The notes beneath the pieces are model-generated. The model saw nothing but the letters and a program-made list of their open reading frames with translations, was not told the DNA's origin and made no database searches. The position numbers were made by a program, and so were the translations under genes. From Roseibacillus sp. (GTDB taxonomy: Bacteria; Verrucomicrobiota; Verrucomicrobiia; Verrucomicrobiales; Akkermansiaceae), in contig JBPOGI010000003.1 of the NCBI GenBank assembly GCA_051251855.1, forward strand, positions 384,001 through 448,000: DNA of 64,000 nt, given 5' to 3'. This document shows positions 4,849 to 36,915 of the stretch, in pieces (within the stretch, counting starts at the first letter, position 1; every line of letters begins with the position of its first letter).

Positions 4849-6135
4849 CTAGTTGCCTTGGCGTTCTTTCCATTCTGAGCGCCAGTCCTCGGCCTCTTGT
4901 TTGAAGGTCGGATCGTTGATCATATCCAATGCGCGTTGCGAAAGTTCCGGATCACCCTGTCGATAAAGGGCATGTTGAGAAATTTGGCCAAAACCGCGAT
5001 CTCTCCAGAGGCCTCTCTCGAATTTTTCCAACCAGGCCCAAGCTGCTTCTGGCTGCTGTCGAAGATAGGGTCTGATTCCAAGCTGGAATAGTTCTCTGGC
5101 TTCTTCGCGCTGAGGTAGGTTGGCGACCCAAGCCGCCATCTCAGCAGAATCGGAACTTTTGGCAAAGGATTCGATGCGCTTTGAGGTGGCGCTGTTAGCG
5201 ATTTCTTCCCAACCTTCGTTTGCAATCATTTGTTCGACAGCGTCCTTGGCCAAGGCCGCTGTTTTTGCGGCTCGCAATACTTGGAGGGCGTAGGGGGAAC
5301 GTTGGTTTTCAGGGATTTCTTGAATTGAATTGAAAGGGTATTCGCGTTTTTGCTTTGCCAGGAGGCCGTTAACAATGGCGTTTAGATTTGGATTGTCGGA
5401 TGAATAGGAGGAGAGCAGCTCTTCCTTGGTTAGGTGTTCAGCGAGATGGGGGACGGGGTCATCTGTGAAGGGGTCTTTGCGATCCATGAGTTGGAAGAGC
5501 GCCTTTGGCGAAAGATTTTTGCGTTCCTTAATTTGTTGCCACACTGCGGGCAGGTGCTCTTCCAAGTTGTGGTTTAGGCGACCCAGAGCCTTCAAGAAGG
5601 ATTCGTCCTTCAAGGTGGGAAGAATGGCTGCGAGCTTATCGGGTTCTTGAATAGAGAGAGCTTTGATCCAAGCGTCTTCTAGTTTGGAATTTTCCAAAGG
5701 ACCGAAGCGATTGTTCTCCAGCAACTGAACGATAGAGTCTGATTGGGTCCACATCTCGAGCTCCAATGACCTGAGGAGTTGAGATGACCAGTCATTGCTT
5801 GCTTGGCCACCCCAAGGTTCGGAGAGGATGGCTTCGAGCGCGGCTTCTAAGTCAACTGCGGCCCATTCTTGAAGGAGACTCATTTGGACGGCGCGCCTTT
5901 CTTTTGGTGAAAGGTCTTTCTTGGGAAGGGAATCCCAAGCATTGCGAAAACGGTTTTGACGGGTTTGTTGATATGGGATGAATTGCGCTGACTTTTCCGA
6001 GGTTGGAGAGTTTTTAGTTGTTTCTACTTGTTCGGATGGAGGCTTGCCCCCTAGGGGGTCCGTTTTTGCTTTGGAAAGCTGATAGCTTACGAGGAAGACG
6101 AGAGGAAAGCTGAGAGCGATGAGAATGGTCTTCAT
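4849..6135 (-). CDS. Hypothetical N-terminally anchored helical-repeat protein
   Basis: 428-aa ORF with N-terminal hydrophobic segment and 'WA..D.EAAL' / 'PEAAWAWL' motifs; start overlaps the upstream stop (ATGA). Confidence 0.75.
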   Translation of the reverse strand: MKTILIALSFPLVFLVSYQLSKAKTDPLGGKPPSEQVETTKNSPTSEKSAQFIPYQQTRQNRFRNAWDSLPKKDLSPKERRAVQMSLLQEWAAVDLEAALEAILSEPWGGQASNDWSSQLLRSLELEMWTQSDSIVQLLENNRFGPLENSKLEDAWIKALSIQEPDKLAAILPTLKDESFLKALGRLNHNLEEHLPAVWQQIKERKNLSPKALFQLMDRKDPFTDDPVPHLAEHLTKEELLSSYSSDNPNLNAIVNGLLAKQKREYPFNSIQEIPENQRSPYALQVLRAAKTAALAKDAVEQMIANEGWEEIANSATSKRIESFAKSSDSAEMAAWVANLPQREEARELFQLGIRPYLRQQPEAAWAWLEKFERGLWRDRGFGQISQHALYRQGDPELSQRALDMINDPTFKQEAEDWRSEWKERQGN

Positions 6136-7672: not shown

Positions 7673-9670
7673 CTAAGCTGCTGATTTTTTGGAAGCTTGT
7701 GAGGAGATTTTGGTTGGCTTTTTGTTGAGTGTGAGGATGGCTTCAGCGAGGAGAAAGAGGAGCATGGCGAGGAGGAAGGGGCGCCAGATTTCTTGCAGGA
7801 GGCTGCTATCGGCTTCTGTTTTTTGTTCGAAGAAGCTGACGTTGGTGTCGGGGAGGAGGGTCTCTTCGATTTCCTCGGGGTCGAGTTTGGCAAGGGTGAG
7901 TTCGGACTCGGGGAGGTTGAGAGCGAGGAGGGTGGCTTCGCCGTCCTCGAGTCGGTAGACGCCAGCTGCATCTGGATAGTCGGAATCGTTGAGGGCGGAA
8001 TCGACTAGAGTGGCTGCGAGGGCAGGGGCTTGGCCGGCGATTTGGCTGTTCTCGTCAAGGCGAGTGGCTCCCGCTTCTAACAGACGCTGCACGAGGACGA
8101 GGTGGAGGGCGGTTTGTTCGAGGTCGGACCAAGTATAGTCTGGAAGAGTGGTGAGGAGGTGGGCGGTGCCTTGTCCGAGGATTTTTCTCACAAGAAGAGG
8201 GGAGCCGTCGTCCCAGCTTGCGAGGGGGATGGCGTCGCTGGAGGGAGCGAGAGGAAGGCGCTTGATGGAGCGGAGTTGGTCGAGGGGAAGGGTGGTGCCG
8301 TCTTGGCCATCACGGAAGGGGCCTTCGTCACGGCGCCAGTTGTCGCTGGCGATGAAGAATTTGCCGGAGGGAGCGGTCTCGATGGGGTTCCACGCGAGGG
8401 TGGCGAAGGTGGCGTCGGGGTTGCTCTCGTTGGGGAGGAAGAGGACTTGGCCACCGGTTTCGAGATAGCTGCGTACGATGACTGCGGCGGTATCGGTGGG
8501 AAGGGGAGCGGCCCAGATGAGGAGGGCGCTGTCGGTGAGGTCGAGGGCGGCGATGTCGGGGCTGGGGCCGGCGAGGATGAGTTGTTCGATTTGGAAGGTA
8601 TCGAGTCCGGGAGGGGCGACGGCGCGGGTGAGGGCGGTCATGGCGTCGTCAGGCAAGGTGCCGTCGTGAACGAGGGTGGTGAGGAGAGGCTTTTGCTCGC
8701 CGTAGGTGAAGTAGAGGTGGTTGTCGCGCAGGTTGGGATCGGGGGGGAGAGAAACGCGGCCCCAGCCAGAGGCTTCGGCGTTGGGGAGAGGGAGGGTGCG
8801 GCTGAAGCGGAGGGTCTGGCCTTCGACGGCGACGGTGTCGGTGGTGGGCGCACCATTGAGATTGATGGTGACGGGGATAGTGGAAGCCCCGGTGGATTCG
8901 TCGCGGGTGAGTTCGAGTTCGAGGGTGAGTTCTTTTTCACTCCGTCGGCTGGTGAGCAGTCGGATGCTACGGTTGTCGCGTGGGGTCTCCGGGAGGGCGA
9001 GGATGCGGAGGGAGGTGGGTGAGGGGAGGTCGTTGAGGGTTTGCGCAAAGGCGGGCCAGCGTGAGTCGTCGGTACGCCAGTTGGCGAGTTGAAGGTCGGT
9101 GGCGAGCCAGACTTCGGTGCGGCCAGGTTGAGCTTCGCGAAGATAGTCGAAGGTGGTGGCCAGGAGAGTAGGAAGGTCGGCAGAGGTGTCGGTGGGGCCG
9201 GTGGTCGAGAGTTCGGGGAGGATGTCGGGAGAGGGGACCTCGGTGACTTCTCCGGTGGCGGAATCGAGGAGGACGAGGCGAGCGGTTTCGAGTTCTGCCA
9301 TGGCGTCGGCGACCTGTTGGAGGATGAGTTCGCGCTTGGTGGGCTGGCCATCGGCTTCGGCGCGCTCCATGGATGCGGAGCGATCGAGAATGAGAACGAC
9401 GGTATCGACGCTCGCTCCGAATCCGAGGAATCCGCCAAGCAAGGGGCGAGCGATGGCGAAGATGAGAGCGGCGACGGCCAAGGCACGGCAAGTGAGGATG
9501 ATGATGTGCTTGAGCTTTTTCTTTCCACGGGACTCGCGAGTGGCTTTCAGGAGAAAGTCCATCGCGGCCCACTTGACGGTGCGATGCCTCCTGCGGTTGA
9601 GCAGGTGAATGATGATGGGGAGGGAGACGGCAAGCAGTCCCCAAAGAAGGGCAGGTTGAAGAAAGGACAT
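7673..9670 (-). CDS. BatA-domain (N-terminal double TM) / VWA membrane protein
   Basis: MSFLQPALLWGLLAVSLPIIIHLLNRRR..WAAMDFL BatA signature, LILDRSASM MIDAS-like motif and a C-terminal TM. Confidence 0.9.
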   Translation of the reverse strand: MSFLQPALLWGLLAVSLPIIIHLLNRRRHRTVKWAAMDFLLKATRESRGKKKLKHIIILTCRALAVAALIFAIARPLLGGFLGFGASVDTVVLILDRSASMERAEADGQPTKRELILQQVADAMAELETARLVLLDSATGEVTEVPSPDILPELSTTGPTDTSADLPTLLATTFDYLREAQPGRTEVWLATDLQLANWRTDDSRWPAFAQTLNDLPSPTSLRILALPETPRDNRSIRLLTSRRSEKELTLELELTRDESTGASTIPVTINLNGAPTTDTVAVEGQTLRFSRTLPLPNAEASGWGRVSLPPDPNLRDNHLYFTYGEQKPLLTTLVHDGTLPDDAMTALTRAVAPPGLDTFQIEQLILAGPSPDIAALDLTDSALLIWAAPLPTDTAAVIVRSYLETGGQVLFLPNESNPDATFATLAWNPIETAPSGKFFIASDNWRRDEGPFRDGQDGTTLPLDQLRSIKRLPLAPSSDAIPLASWDDGSPLLVRKILGQGTAHLLTTLPDYTWSDLEQTALHLVLVQRLLEAGATRLDENSQIAGQAPALAATLVDSALNDSDYPDAAGVYRLEDGEATLLALNLPESELTLAKLDPEEIEETLLPDTNVSFFEQKTEADSSLLQEIWRPFLLAMLLFLLAEAILTLNKKPTKISSQASKKSAA

Positions 9671-9708: not shown

Positions 9709-9751
9709 GAGGCCTTGAAAAACTCAATGTTCAAAAACTCAAAAACCAAAG
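9709..9751 (+). repeat. 43-bp inverted-repeat core, left arm of element copy 1
   Basis: GAGGCCTTGAAAAACTCAATGTTCAAAAACTCAAAAACCAAAG; 40/43 match to the reverse complement of 10183-10225. Confidence 0.95.
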
Positions 9752-9813
9752 GTGGGCGTTTTGAGGTGTGAGACGGGAATGGTAGTGAAAGGATTTGGGT
9801 GCGACTGAGATGG

Positions 9814-10179
9814 TTACTCGGCGGGTGGGAGTTTTTTGACGATGGTGGTGAGGATGCGAGCGAGTTGGTCGGCTTCGTCTTCGATAGTGGCCATGTCGTT
9901 GCGGAGAGAGGCGGGAAGGGTTTGCGAAAGGAGGCGGGCCCAGTGGCGGGACTCTGCTGCTTCCTTGCGGGCGACGCGCATGCGATAGATTTTGTCGCGT
10001 TGAGAGAGGGAGTCGTTCGCTTCTATGTAGTTCGCTCCTACTGACCCAGAGGAACGAAGAAGCTGCTTCGAATCCTCCCAGCAAACTGGTGGCAGGTCTT
10101 GTTCAGAAAGGACGCGACGAACCGAGACCGCGAACTGGTATGTTCGTTCCTCCAACTCATACTGTGTTCCCTTCGCCAT
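9814..10179 (-). CDS. Four helix bundle protein (23S rRNA intervening-sequence protein family)
   Basis: LEERTYQFA...QLLRSSGSVGANYIEAN...ARKEAAESRHW...EADQLARILTTI family signature; 121 aa. Confidence 0.92.
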   Translation of the reverse strand: MAKGTQYELEERTYQFAVSVRRVLSEQDLPPVCWEDSKQLLRSSGSVGANYIEANDSLSQRDKIYRMRVARKEAAESRHWARLLSQTLPASLRNDMATIEDEADQLARILTTIVKKLPPAE

Positions 10180-10182
10180 CAA

Positions 10183-10225
10183 CTTTGGTTTTTGAGTTTT
10201 TGAATATTTGGTTTTTCAAGGCCTC
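10183..10225 (-). repeat. 43-bp inverted-repeat core, right arm of element copy 1
   Basis: CTTTGGTTTTTGAGTTTTTGAATATTTGGTTTTTCAAGGCCTC; ends 3 nt before the four-helix-bundle ATG. Confidence 0.95.
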
Positions 10226-10257: not shown

Positions 10258-11139
10258 CTACCTGATTCGATTGGTGAGGAAGTCGGAGAGGATGGCTTCG
10301 TAGTCTTGGTCGGTGACGATGCGCTGATAGTCGGCTTGCACGTCGTGGGCTTTGGCTTCGACGAGGGTGAGGTATTCGTTGAGCGCGGCATGGTATTCCT
10401 CGGTGATGAGATTGGGCTCGGCGACGAGGGTGGAATTGTCTTCGAGGTCGACGAAGCGGTGGGGGCGGTCGAAGGCGAAGTCGATTTCTTGCCGGTCTAA
10501 CAAGTGGAAGAGAGCGATGTCGTGTTTGCGGTAGCGAAGGTGTTGCAGGGCTTCTCCGAGGGCTTCGGGGTCGCAGAAGAGATCGGAGAGAACTACGATG
10601 AGGGCGCGTTGTTTGACCTTTTCGGCGACGGTGTGAAGAGCGTCGACGAGGCCGGTTTCGCCTTTGGGTTCCAGCTTACCGAGATTGTCGAAGATAAGTT
10701 GAAGTTGGGAGGCGGAGCGAGAGGGTGGGATTTCGAGATGAATCTTTTCGTTGCAGACGGAGAGGCCGGCTGCGTCGCCTTGTTTGACGAGCAAGTAGGA
10801 GAGGGAGGCGGCGATGCGGCGCGCGTATTGGATCTTAGTGTCGGTTTCGCCGCTGGCAAAATTCATGGAGCCCGAGGAGTCGACCACGAAGTAGGCACGC
10901 AGGTTGGTGTCGGCCTCAAACTCTTTGATGTAAAAACGATCGGAACGCGCGAAGGCTTTCCAGTCGAGACGGCGAGTGTCGTCGCCGGGGACGTATTTGC
11001 GGTATTCGGCGAACTCGACCGAGGAGCCTCGGTGGGGGGAACGGTGTTTGCCGGCGACACTGCCGATCATCGCTTGGCGACTTTCCAGAGGGAGAGCCGA
11101 AAGGCGGGCGAGGAGATTGTGATCGATGAAGTCGTGCAT
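10258..11139 (-). CDS. DUF58 protein (MoxR-associated)
   Basis: G.HRS..RGSSVEFAEYRKYVPGDD.RRLDWKAFAR, VVDSSGSM and VVLSDLF motifs. Confidence 0.93.
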   Translation of the reverse strand: MHDFIDHNLLARLSALPLESRQAMIGSVAGKHRSPHRGSSVEFAEYRKYVPGDDTRRLDWKAFARSDRFYIKEFEADTNLRAYFVVDSSGSMNFASGETDTKIQYARRIAASLSYLLVKQGDAAGLSVCNEKIHLEIPPSRSASQLQLIFDNLGKLEPKGETGLVDALHTVAEKVKQRALIVVLSDLFCDPEALGEALQHLRYRKHDIALFHLLDRQEIDFAFDRPHRFVDLEDNSTLVAEPNLITEEYHAALNEYLTLVEAKAHDVQADYQRIVTDQDYEAILSDFLTNRIR

Positions 11140-11178
11140 GACGATTTTGTTGGGGCGAACAAGGGCGTTCGCGGTCCT

Positions 11179-12294
11179 TTAGTCGTCGAGTTCTTCTAAC
11201 AGCTTGGCGACGATCTTCTTAGAGGTCATGCCTTGGGACTCGGCAGCGAAGGTGGGAATGACGCGGTGGGTGAGGACGGGGGCGGCGACGGCGAGGAGGT
11301 CTTCGCGGCGAACCATGTAGCTGCCATGGAGGGCGGCGCGAGCCTTGGAGGCGAGGACGAGGTTCTGGATGGCGCGGGGGCCGGAGCCCCAGCCGATGAG
11401 TTCTTTGATCCACTCGGGGGATTCTTCGCCATCTGGGCGGGTGCGGCGGACGAGGGTGACGGCGTCGTCGTAGATGTGGTCGGGGACGGGAACGCGGCGA
11501 ACAAGGGTTTGGTAGGCTTTGATTTGTTCGCCGTTCATGAGCTTGTTGAGAGTCTCGGGGGCTTTGCCAGTGGTTTCGCGTGCGATGCGGCCTTCTTCGG
11601 CGGCGGAAGGGTATTCAACTTCGATGAGGAACATGAAGCGGTCGAGTTGGGCTTCGGGGAGGGGGTAGGTTCCTTCTTGCTCGATGGGGTTTTGGGTGGC
11701 GAGAACGAAGAAGGGCTTGTCGAGGCTGTAGGATCGGCCGAGGACGGTGACCTTTTTTTCCTGCATGGCTTCGAGCATGGCGGACTGGGTCTTGGCGGGG
11801 GCGCGGTTGATTTCGTCGGCGAGGACGATGTTGGCGAAGACGGGGCCTTTAATGAATTCGAACTCGCGTTTGCCGCCGACTCCGGATTCTTGGATAATGT
11901 CGGTGCCGGTGATGTCGGCGGGCATGAGGTCGGGAGTGAACTGGATGCGGGAGAAGCTAAGGTCGAGGGTTTCGGCGACGCTGGAGACGAGGAGGGTTTT
12001 GGCGAGGCCGGGAACGCCCATGAGAAGGGAGTGACCGCCAGCGAAGAGGGAGATGGAAAGTTGTTCGATGACCTCTTCTTGCCCGATGATGACTTTTCCG
12101 AGTTCGGCTTTGAAGTCTTGGTAGACTTTTCCGAGCTGATTGATGGCTTCGACGTCGTCTTCAGGGAGGCCAGCGTTAGAAGTGGGAGGCTCGGGGGTGG
12201 TTACGGTGGAAGCCGACTCGGAGGAGCTTGGGTTTCCAGAGGGGAAAGGAGTGACGGGGTCAGTGCTCGGCGTTTCAGATGGATTGTCGGACAT
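11179..12294 (-). CDS. moxR: MoxR-family AAA+ ATPase
   Basis: GVPGLAKT Walker A, RIQFTPDLMPADITG, LADEINRAPAKTQSA and ATQNPIEQEGTYPLPEAQLDRF. Confidence 0.95.
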   Translation of the reverse strand: MSDNPSETPSTDPVTPFPSGNPSSSESASTVTTPEPPTSNAGLPEDDVEAINQLGKVYQDFKAELGKVIIGQEEVIEQLSISLFAGGHSLLMGVPGLAKTLLVSSVAETLDLSFSRIQFTPDLMPADITGTDIIQESGVGGKREFEFIKGPVFANIVLADEINRAPAKTQSAMLEAMQEKKVTVLGRSYSLDKPFFVLATQNPIEQEGTYPLPEAQLDRFMFLIEVEYPSAAEEGRIARETTGKAPETLNKLMNGEQIKAYQTLVRRVPVPDHIYDDAVTLVRRTRPDGEESPEWIKELIGWGSGPRAIQNLVLASKARAALHGSYMVRREDLLAVAAPVLTHRVIPTFAAESQGMTSKKIVAKLLEELDD

Positions 12295-21925: not shown

Positions 21926-22188
21926 ATTCGGGGTGGTCGGGTGGGGTGTGGATCGCCGAGGCCTTGAAAAACCAAATGTTCAAAAACTCAAAAACCAAAG
22001 CTGTTTGCTCCCCGTCCTTCTAGACTCAGCGACGAGAAGAATTCCCCGAACCGATCAGGAGTCCACGAAGCTTATCCCACTCCTGAGAATCCCCGGCCAC
22101 TTCGAGCACTCAATTTTGGTTTTTGAGTTTTTGAACATTTGGTTTTTCAAGGTCTCTAGGATCTTCCCCCCACCCTCGAACCCCGAAT
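21926..22188. mobile_element. Gene-less palindromic element (MITE/REPIN-like), copy 2
   Basis: Core IRs at 21958-22000 and 22114-22156 (41/43 match). Arms extend without gaps to 75 nt via ATTCGGGGT-N4-GGGTGGGG-N4-GATC; 113-bp spacer. Confidence 0.8.
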
Positions 22189-36691: not shown

Positions 36692-36915
36692 AAGTTCGGA
36701 GGGGGCGAGTTGGGGGCTGATCGCCAAGGCCTTGAAAAACCGAATGTTCAAAAACTCAAAAACCAAAGCTCTCCATTCCTCGCCCTCTTTGGCTCCGCGA
36801 TAAGAGCGAATTGGCTCTGCCGCCAAGATAGTTCCTTTGCCCCAAGCAGCCCCAGCCACTTCGAAGACACAGCTTTGGTTTTTGAGTTTTTGGTCACTTG
36901 GGTTTTCAAGGTTTC
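36692..36915. mobile_element. Gene-less palindromic element (MITE/REPIN-like), copy 3, more degenerate
   Basis: Core IRs at 36726-36768 and 36873-36915. The 40 nt from 36692 (flank plus start of core) match copy 2 at 29/40 without gaps; spacer shares CCCC(A/G)GCCACTTCGA with copy 2. Confidence 0.78.

Follow-up and report, generated by a model that had tools for sequence, protein, structure and literature searches.

A four-helix-bundle gene between inverted repeats in a Roseibacillus MoxR operon, and the dispersed family formed by its repeat arms

Introduction

Why does a small four-helix-bundle gene, enclosed by long inverted repeats, lie inside a MoxR operon of Roseibacillus sp., and do its repeats have an existence of their own? 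The question was raised by a reading of a 64,000-nucleotide stretch of the genome (hereafter the window), which held the gene and its repeats to be a discrete mobile or processed unit. Both ingredients are known already, the gene family and its stem layout from rRNA intervening sequences (IVS), and inverted heptamer arrays as repeats without a mover. To our knowledge, the very common PF05635/TIGR02436 family, despite its solved structures, has no function assigned outside DGRs, and we know of no mover for bacterial heptamer or octamer repeat arrays. The locus joins the two and offers a candidate protein/ligand pair comprising one protein and one 43-bp arm. A literature search found no report of repeat-flanked four-helix genes outside rRNA, although it covered subscription journals thinly and no supplements, so a description could exist. 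We conclude that the cassette is real and under selection, with a fair chance of being a class of its own.

Structure of the Cassette

The four-helix-bundle gene (9814..10179, minus strand; 121 aa, PF05635/TIGR02436) separates two host genes of the MoxR operon, as originally described: DUF58 upstream (10258..11139), itself next to the gene for a MoxR AAA ATPase (11179..12294), and a gene with a BatA N-terminal domain downstream (7673..9670), all three likewise on the minus strand. The cassette is bounded by two 43-bp arms, a 3′ arm (9709..9751, plus strand) and a 5′ arm (10183..10225, minus strand). On the mRNA strand the former is T-rich and the latter A-rich, and the 5′ arm spans the translation start region of the gene. 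The arms are inverted and identical at 40 of 43 positions. On the minus strand, the right arm is followed by TTG and then by the ATG of the gene, hence it ends 3 nt before the start codon. Repeat identity, the 3-nt gap and the 121-aa reading frame were all re-measured as first given, and the missing target-site duplication was borne out, no direct repeat longer than 4 nt occurring in the 40-nt flanks of the cassette. The 8-nt period needs qualification: the arms are periodic, as claimed, but their 8-nt units are mixed with 7-nt ones (autocorrelation 0.43 at 8 and 0.40 at 15). Between positions 8700 and 11300 the window has no differences from a contig of run X1 that looks independent and is possibly the window's own source. 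A search for promoter-like sites found none, a search for terminator-like sites found one, at chance level, and no Rfam family reached threshold or rose above chance.

Arms Elsewhere in the Genome

A 21-nt core of the arm, allowed up to two mismatches, has 22 matches in the genome of the window (G000) as opposed to 2 for the reversed control. The matches form eight inverted pairs and about 11 solo arms. The genome search for the 43-mer proposed at the outset thus showed the arm to be a genome-wide repeat, but just one of the eight pairs encloses a four-helix-bundle gene. G000 has a single cognate gene.

Two gene-less inverted pairs lie within the window, one at 21958..22156 (41/43 identical, 113-nt spacer), which is missing at the syntenic site in the relatives G001 and G003, and one at 36726..36915 (35/43, 104-nt spacer), which is missing at the syntenic site in G003. 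The terminal inverted repeats of the five full gene-less pairs are identical at 35–41 of 43 positions, and the 16 full arms have sharp ends, with a mean column conservation of 0.94 inside and 0.42–0.59 outside. The seven gene-less spacers (39–151 nt) are unlike one another (best 15 nt) and unlike the gene, and one of them contains a terminator-like hairpin and a REP-like palindrome. Six of the seven gene-less pairs are missing at the syntenic site of at least one relative, and the seventh has a worn counterpart in G004. None of the relatives has a four-helix gene at any of these seven sites, and the spacers match the gene unconvincingly (best tblastn E value 0.011), leaving a decay of cassettes in situ unsupported as the source of the gene-less pairs. 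The longest direct repeats in the 40-nt flanks of the pairs measure 4–6 nt and are mostly off the junctions; target-site duplications of old copies may have worn away.

No transposase, integrase or reverse transcriptase is linked to the arms or the cassette. The genome has eight Y1 genes and two reverse transcriptase (RT) genes, none beside an arm, which upholds the earlier remark that no transposase is visible, and both RT genes are on other contigs. An RT as driver was rejected, as eight of the nine genus genomes have an RT, arm-less ones included, and the RT does not track the repeat.

Arms were also found in settings other than co-directional spacers. Three of the seven gene-less pairs are flanked by divergent or convergent genes, and one arm lies in-frame within a 1161-codon gene. 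In-frame arms in long coding regions, stacked with GxxExxY-type arrays, were seen at G000:C6:672510, C7:371805 and L064:7501, in genes that we take to be dnaE2, uvrA and priA. Of the 16 arm spacers of at least 100 nt, seven are shared with unrelated GxxExxY-type arrays and REP-like repeats (odds ratio 40), which leaves room for one external agent moving them all. A hint that arms take part in recombination comes from G004 (L061), in which two 113-nt direct repeats (5446-5558 and 7902-8014, 99% identical), beginning exactly at the inner end of an arm, flank a 749-codon open frame; the gene, which looks like a cation-transport ATPase, is absent at the matching G000 site. Regarding excised or circular forms, the contigs of four runs contain only joints explained by other arm pairs, rare forms being invisible in contigs.

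Occurrence in Relatives, Age, and Selection

Among the eight other members of the genus, the gene stands between DUF58 and BatA with inverted arms in G004 (96% identical), G001 (83%) and G005 (66%). In G002 it precedes BatA, and no 5′ arm is recognizable. G003 has a gene-less, 50-nt collapsed remnant of both arms, and the alleles of G006, G007 and G008 are empty, in G006 with the stop directly joined to the ATG. The search for empty sites proposed at the outset was thus successful, and the gene is missing in four of nine genus members. The arms of G005 have a 7-nt word in place of the 8-nt word while remaining complementary.

The four-helix gene was absent from all 21 of the best DUF58 loci of other genera. 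In one genome of another genus (G039) there is a gene-less pair with a different word at the DUF58 locus, and in a further Verrucomicrobiales record (L135) the DUF58-BatA site is occupied by a cassette of 51% identity. The close clade of the gene (at least 60% identity) was found at the DUF58-BatA site only. Other, unrelated genes are inserted in the same spacer in L031 (G037) and L032 (G028), the former presumably a Uma2-type nuclease. The MoxR-DUF58 spacer (window 11140-11181) is empty in G000 and holds another four-helix cassette in G001 (G001:C10:50074-50397) and G002 (G002:C231:2759-3085).

Core copies number 22 in G000, 9 in G004, 7 in G001 and 5 in G005, and zero in the other five genus members; six of 142 further genomes of the family have a single copy. 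Multiple copies thus occur in just those four genomes whose cassette is intact, a correlation across nine related genomes that are not independent samples and of which two are less than 90% complete.

The original prediction allowed for a mobile insertion, and a recent one is contradicted by the synonymous divergence of the gene from its G004 counterpart (dS 0.93), which matches that of the neighboring DUF58 gene (0.96). Relative to G001, the dS of the gene is higher (1.5 vs. 0.83 for DUF58). Purifying selection on the gene is as strong as on DUF58: three pairwise comparisons gave dN/dS values of 0.020, 0.072 and 0.043 for the gene and 0.037, 0.073 and 0.045 for DUF58. The identity ranks of the two genes agree, as expected of vertical descent. 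Between species the arms are identical at 38–41 of 43 positions compared with 51–69% for adjacent non-coding segments; in G004 and G001 the 3′ arm is kept at 38–41/43 and the 5′ arm at 38–40/43. Since protein and arm sequences are both constrained and dS equals that of the neighbor, the cassette has long been in place. An idle copy would decay, from which we infer that either the host needs the cassette or homing renews it. Our preferred guess for the host's reason to keep the gene intact is the handling of the many arm copies in trans. In a DUF58 tree, G001 groups with G003, G006 and G008 (support 92/95), so the empty alleles of the genus may be losses; 8 of the 11 inner branches of this tree are open.

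Homologous Cassettes in Other Lineages

The arrangement is widespread in the protein family. Of 80 homologs in genomes, three were dropped for short flanks, and 64 of the remaining 77 have inverted arms at a score of at least 28; the same score is attained by directly oriented arms in 7 of 77 loci and by 1 of 139 shifted windows. A further 80 metagenome loci, reduced to 65 by dropping 15, gave inverted arms in 58 and direct ones in 12. This tabulation of four-helix genes between inverted pairs was among the checks first suggested and, together with the empty and collapsed alleles, supports the view of the gene plus its repeats as a unit. The A-rich arm is the 5′ one in 63 of 64 cassettes, the median arm length is 36 nt, and the period is 7 in 58 of 64. 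Cassettes of the subfamily occur in at least 20 different neighborhoods, for example, pntAB, leuCD, atpA-atpG, paaB-paaC and nqr, and their host operons have no function in common (the neighbor scan covers 73 of 148 ORFs, chosen for lying on the same strand, and many Bacteroidota rows share pntAB and are non-independent).

Across phyla, 47.6% of 1249 same-subfamily arm pairs align (score at least 28), as opposed to 0.4% of 704 pairs from different subfamilies and none of 14 pairs of different cassettes sharing a genome. The repeat word therefore follows the protein subfamily rather than the host genome, which fits the idea, already put forward from the window, that the protein binds the repeat. 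The octamer arm of the window stands apart: among 62 other subfamily cassettes, 12.9% align with it. Within the genus there are 24 TIGR02436 genes, 15 of them with inverted arms at a score of at least 24 and with words that differ by subfamily.

The second four-helix gene of G000 (L001, C9:134608-134931), flanked by what we take to be two ribonucleotide-reductase genes, lies between arrays of a different 7-nt word with the T-rich arm 5′. Another four-helix cassette (L045, G001:C19:43699-44022) has arms containing the TAACTGA word. Three GxxExxY (PD-(D/E)XK) genes of G000 (C7:525684-526031, C1:828581-828934 and C7:268209-268553) also lie between inverted short-word arrays, in co-directional spacers and with the same layout around unrelated cargo; their arms too occur gene-less elsewhere.

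Protein Fold and Predicted Assembly

The 121-aa protein matches PF05635 (E 1.3e-10) and TIGR02436 (E 3.4e-17) and is modeled confidently as a four-helix bundle (pLDDT 93.9). It is all-helical, with one His, no HUH motif and no net charge (18 K+R, 18 D+E). Structurally, the model comes closest to 2RLD (Z 16.7, rmsd 1.6, 109 aligned), followed by 2GSC (Z 15.2, rmsd 2.5, 113 aligned); 2RLD was also the sole match of a profile search over PDB sequences, and an Atlas search returned PF05635 clusters only. Avd matches the model at Z 11–12, amid unrelated helical bundles, so the link to Avd comes from the literature, where Avd is described as homologous to PF05635 (PMC10053308; here and below, statements on published work refer to the available portions of the papers).

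Four copies of the protein were predicted to form a head-to-tail assembly with a score of 0.45, compared with 0.00 for the best control, and the prediction runs agree in at least 97% of contacts with pLDDT of at least 86. Of 30 solved pairs, 20 attain the score mark, as does one of 23 single chains. This suggests that the protein is likely to form rings, and the pass may itself stem from resemblance to 2RLD.

A Proposed Master Gene for Dispersed Arms

We propose that the long-resident cassette is likely the master copy for the dispersed gene-less arms and that its protein, a predicted ring, likely binds the word of the arm and would aid copying together with a catalytic partner supplied in trans. 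We give this proposal a probability of about one half. The organization is best read as a single master gene with dispersed non-autonomous arms, RAYT/REPIN-like in outline, with an Avd-related protein and no transposase. Once the 3′ arm is transcribed, the predicted stem would hide the start of the gene itself. The protein would assemble into a ring, which by analogy with Avd would bind about five units of the word as single-stranded RNA or DNA, and the bound protein would help arms, occasionally whole cassettes, to be copied to new sites, with catalysis provided from elsewhere. The reading of about five units by a ring and the catalysis in trans are suggested by the predicted four-copy assembly, by the binding of specific RNA by the Avd pentamer and by the lack of a linked enzyme.

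Several observations fit this proposal poorly. The protein is uncharged overall, whereas Avd is highly positive (PMC6182149), and the structural match to Avd reaches only Z 11–12. G005 has a cassette with a 7-mer word yet five matches to the octamer core elsewhere in its genome, and G002 has the gene without a recognizable 5′ arm. The window arm aligns with only 12.9% of the subfamily cassettes, spacers are shared with unrelated repeats, and the close clade (at least 60% identity) is known from one site only.

Should the protein read its word, the family would provide small modular nucleic-acid binders, and the repeat would be one that spreads without a linked transposase. The second G000 cassette, having a different word, is a built-in specificity control. 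We tentatively extend the proposal to PF05635 proteins in general, which could be the sequence-specific engines of an undescribed, transposase-free selfish DNA. Each subfamily would form a five-membered ring with its own 7-8-nt word, one subunit per unit of an arm of about 36-43 nt, driving the copying of arms and cassettes, and the rRNA IVS ORFs, Avd and the heptamer families would be its branches.

Alternative Explanations

The arms might instead be kept for pairing in the operon transcript, as in an mRNA intervening sequence from which RNase III would excise the gene while the protein chaperones or protects the stem, gene-less pairs being by-products. As RNA, the 590-nt spacer folds better than all of 100 shuffles (z −4.03), and the predicted arm-on-arm duplex (−55.8 kcal/mol) includes an uninterrupted 22-bp helix. 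With the 3′ arm present, the gene start region is predicted to be 0.14 unpaired, down from 0.67 without that arm, the BatA start being at 0.82, so a stem may form and limit expression of the gene. The family and stem-loop layout are those of the Coxiella IVS, in which a 28-bp stem is cut by RNase III and the IVS excised (PMC4990558), and the arms of G005 switched word yet remain complementary. However, across 122 cassettes the arm mismatches comprise 129 G-U on the mRNA strand vs. 134, plus 375 transversions. With no G-U excess on the mRNA strand, selection for the RNase III-type stem that the original prediction had envisaged is not seen, a count that out-of-register alignment of arrays could blur. 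Conservation moreover covers the sequence of the arm, beyond mere pairing; the roughly 11 solitary arms and the three of seven gene-less pairs between divergent or convergent genes do not fit, and cutting an mRNA without religation offers an element no evident means of spread. A pair of binding arrays describes the arms better than a helix under selection for pairing does, and we consider the intervening-sequence explanation unlikely.

A homing cycle, with selection at the level of the element, is a still more doubtful explanation. Recombination would carry the selfish cassette repeatedly into empty alleles of this one spacer, where it would decay and be lost, with a nuclease acting in trans, such as a GxxExxY PD-(D/E)XK protein, starting the event. 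Full, collapsed and empty alleles do coexist in one genus, the cassette-bearing G001 groups with empty-allele genomes in the DUF58 tree (92/95), and its gene is more diverged (dS 1.5) than DUF58 (0.83). The same site houses the 51%-identical cassette of L135 and the gene-less pair with another word in G039, and GxxExxY genes bear inverted arrays as well. Against this, dS to G004 is that of the neighbor, relatives fall in the same identity order for the gene as for DUF58, most of the DUF58 tree is open (8/11 inner branches), the words of the GxxExxY arms differ, and arms at new sites are left unexplained.

It is improbable that the protein is a domesticated regulator that binds arm RNA and tunes the translation or stability of arm-bearing operons, the arms spreading rarely by ordinary recombination and being kept when useful. 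Purifying selection at the host level and the overlap of the 5′ arm with the translation start region would be expected of such a regulator, and a translational role has been proposed for TAACTGA heptamer arrays (PMC4679880), but the host operons are functionally unrelated, four of nine genus members do without the gene, most pairs are lineage-specific, and some arms lie in-frame inside genes.

Finally, we strongly disfavor the idea that a RAYT or IS200-type enzyme mobilizes the arms as ordinary REP- or MITE-like repeats, the gene being passive cargo. The eight Y1-family genes of the genome and the REP-like palindromes in arm spacers could be cited for it, but none of the eight Y1 genes adjoins an arm, a single arm forms no hairpin (its folding does not exceed that of shuffles, z −0.58 to −1.22) and the word follows the four-helix subfamily across phyla.

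Comparison with Known Systems

The closest layout is that of the ORF-bearing 23S rRNA IVS of Coxiella burnetii and Leptospira, which place an S23p/PF05635 ORF in the loop of a terminal inverted-repeat stem (28 bp in Coxiella, 43 bp here) and are likewise sporadically present or absent. In contrast, the cassette described here lies outside rRNA, between the protein-coding genes DUF58 and BatA; its arms are short-word arrays that form a dispersed family; and its ORF is under strong purifying selection, whereas that of the Coxiella IVS is reported to be decaying and unexpressed (PMC4990558). ORFs named 23S_rRNA_IVP also occur in rRNA insertions of CPR (10.1101/2024.02.27.582315).

The REPIN-RAYT system resembles the master-gene organization in its single-copy, vertically inherited gene accompanied by extragenic inverted doublets and singlets, and in spacers that are less conserved than the arms (10.1101/2022.05.22.493013). 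Here, however, the gene encodes a four-helix bundle instead of a Y1 (HUH) tyrosine transposase, the arms are non-palindromic, and the spacers have no family resemblance. The gene-less pairs have terminal inverted repeats as MITEs do, but they lack target-site duplications, and the copies share no internal sequence with each other or with the gene.

The Avd protein of DGRs, a pentamer protecting a specific RNA site of about 27 nt (Sp 4-30; PMC6182149, 10.1101/2023.10.23.563531), has a fold related to that of our protein, which differs in having no net positive charge and no reverse transcriptase, template repeat or variable repeat nearby. The GGGAATC family of Xanthomonas, with 70-75 inverted pairs (PMC4692102), and the TAACTGA arrays of Beggiatoaceae, Cyanobacteria and Bacteroidetes (PMC4679880) are intergenic short-word arrays, often in convergent pairs and at times inside genes, as are the arms here. 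The difference is that our repeat is tied to a four-helix gene; a term search of the main texts of these two papers found four-helix, S23 or intervening-sequence genes unmentioned.

Strand Context and Other Repeats

A strand bias of the arms, seen in the genus, was rejected because it is lost in four other genomes of the order (11/23) and the leading strand is ambiguous. A clustering of arms near one skew switch depends on an inferred contig order and was set aside. Where arm spacers are co-directional, the genes are on the C-rich strand in 14 of 15 (baseline 53-58%, p 0.001-0.004), as they are at 21 of 24 four-helix and 17 of 19 GxxExxY loci of the genus. The GC skew of G000 is very strong (~0.2), with dnaA-dnaN and parA near a plus-to-minus switch (C1:1.06-1.10 Mb). 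Its G-rich strand encodes the rRNA leaders, 36 of 50 tRNAs and the ribosomal-protein operon, and its C-rich strand 55% of called genes. G000 also contains arrays of ~130-bp repeats, mostly 90-97% identical and ~500-600 bp apart (C2-C5, C7:1-5300, C6:10600-12200 and C10:860-2070), which are cassette-array-like, the C7 copies having small ORFs between them.
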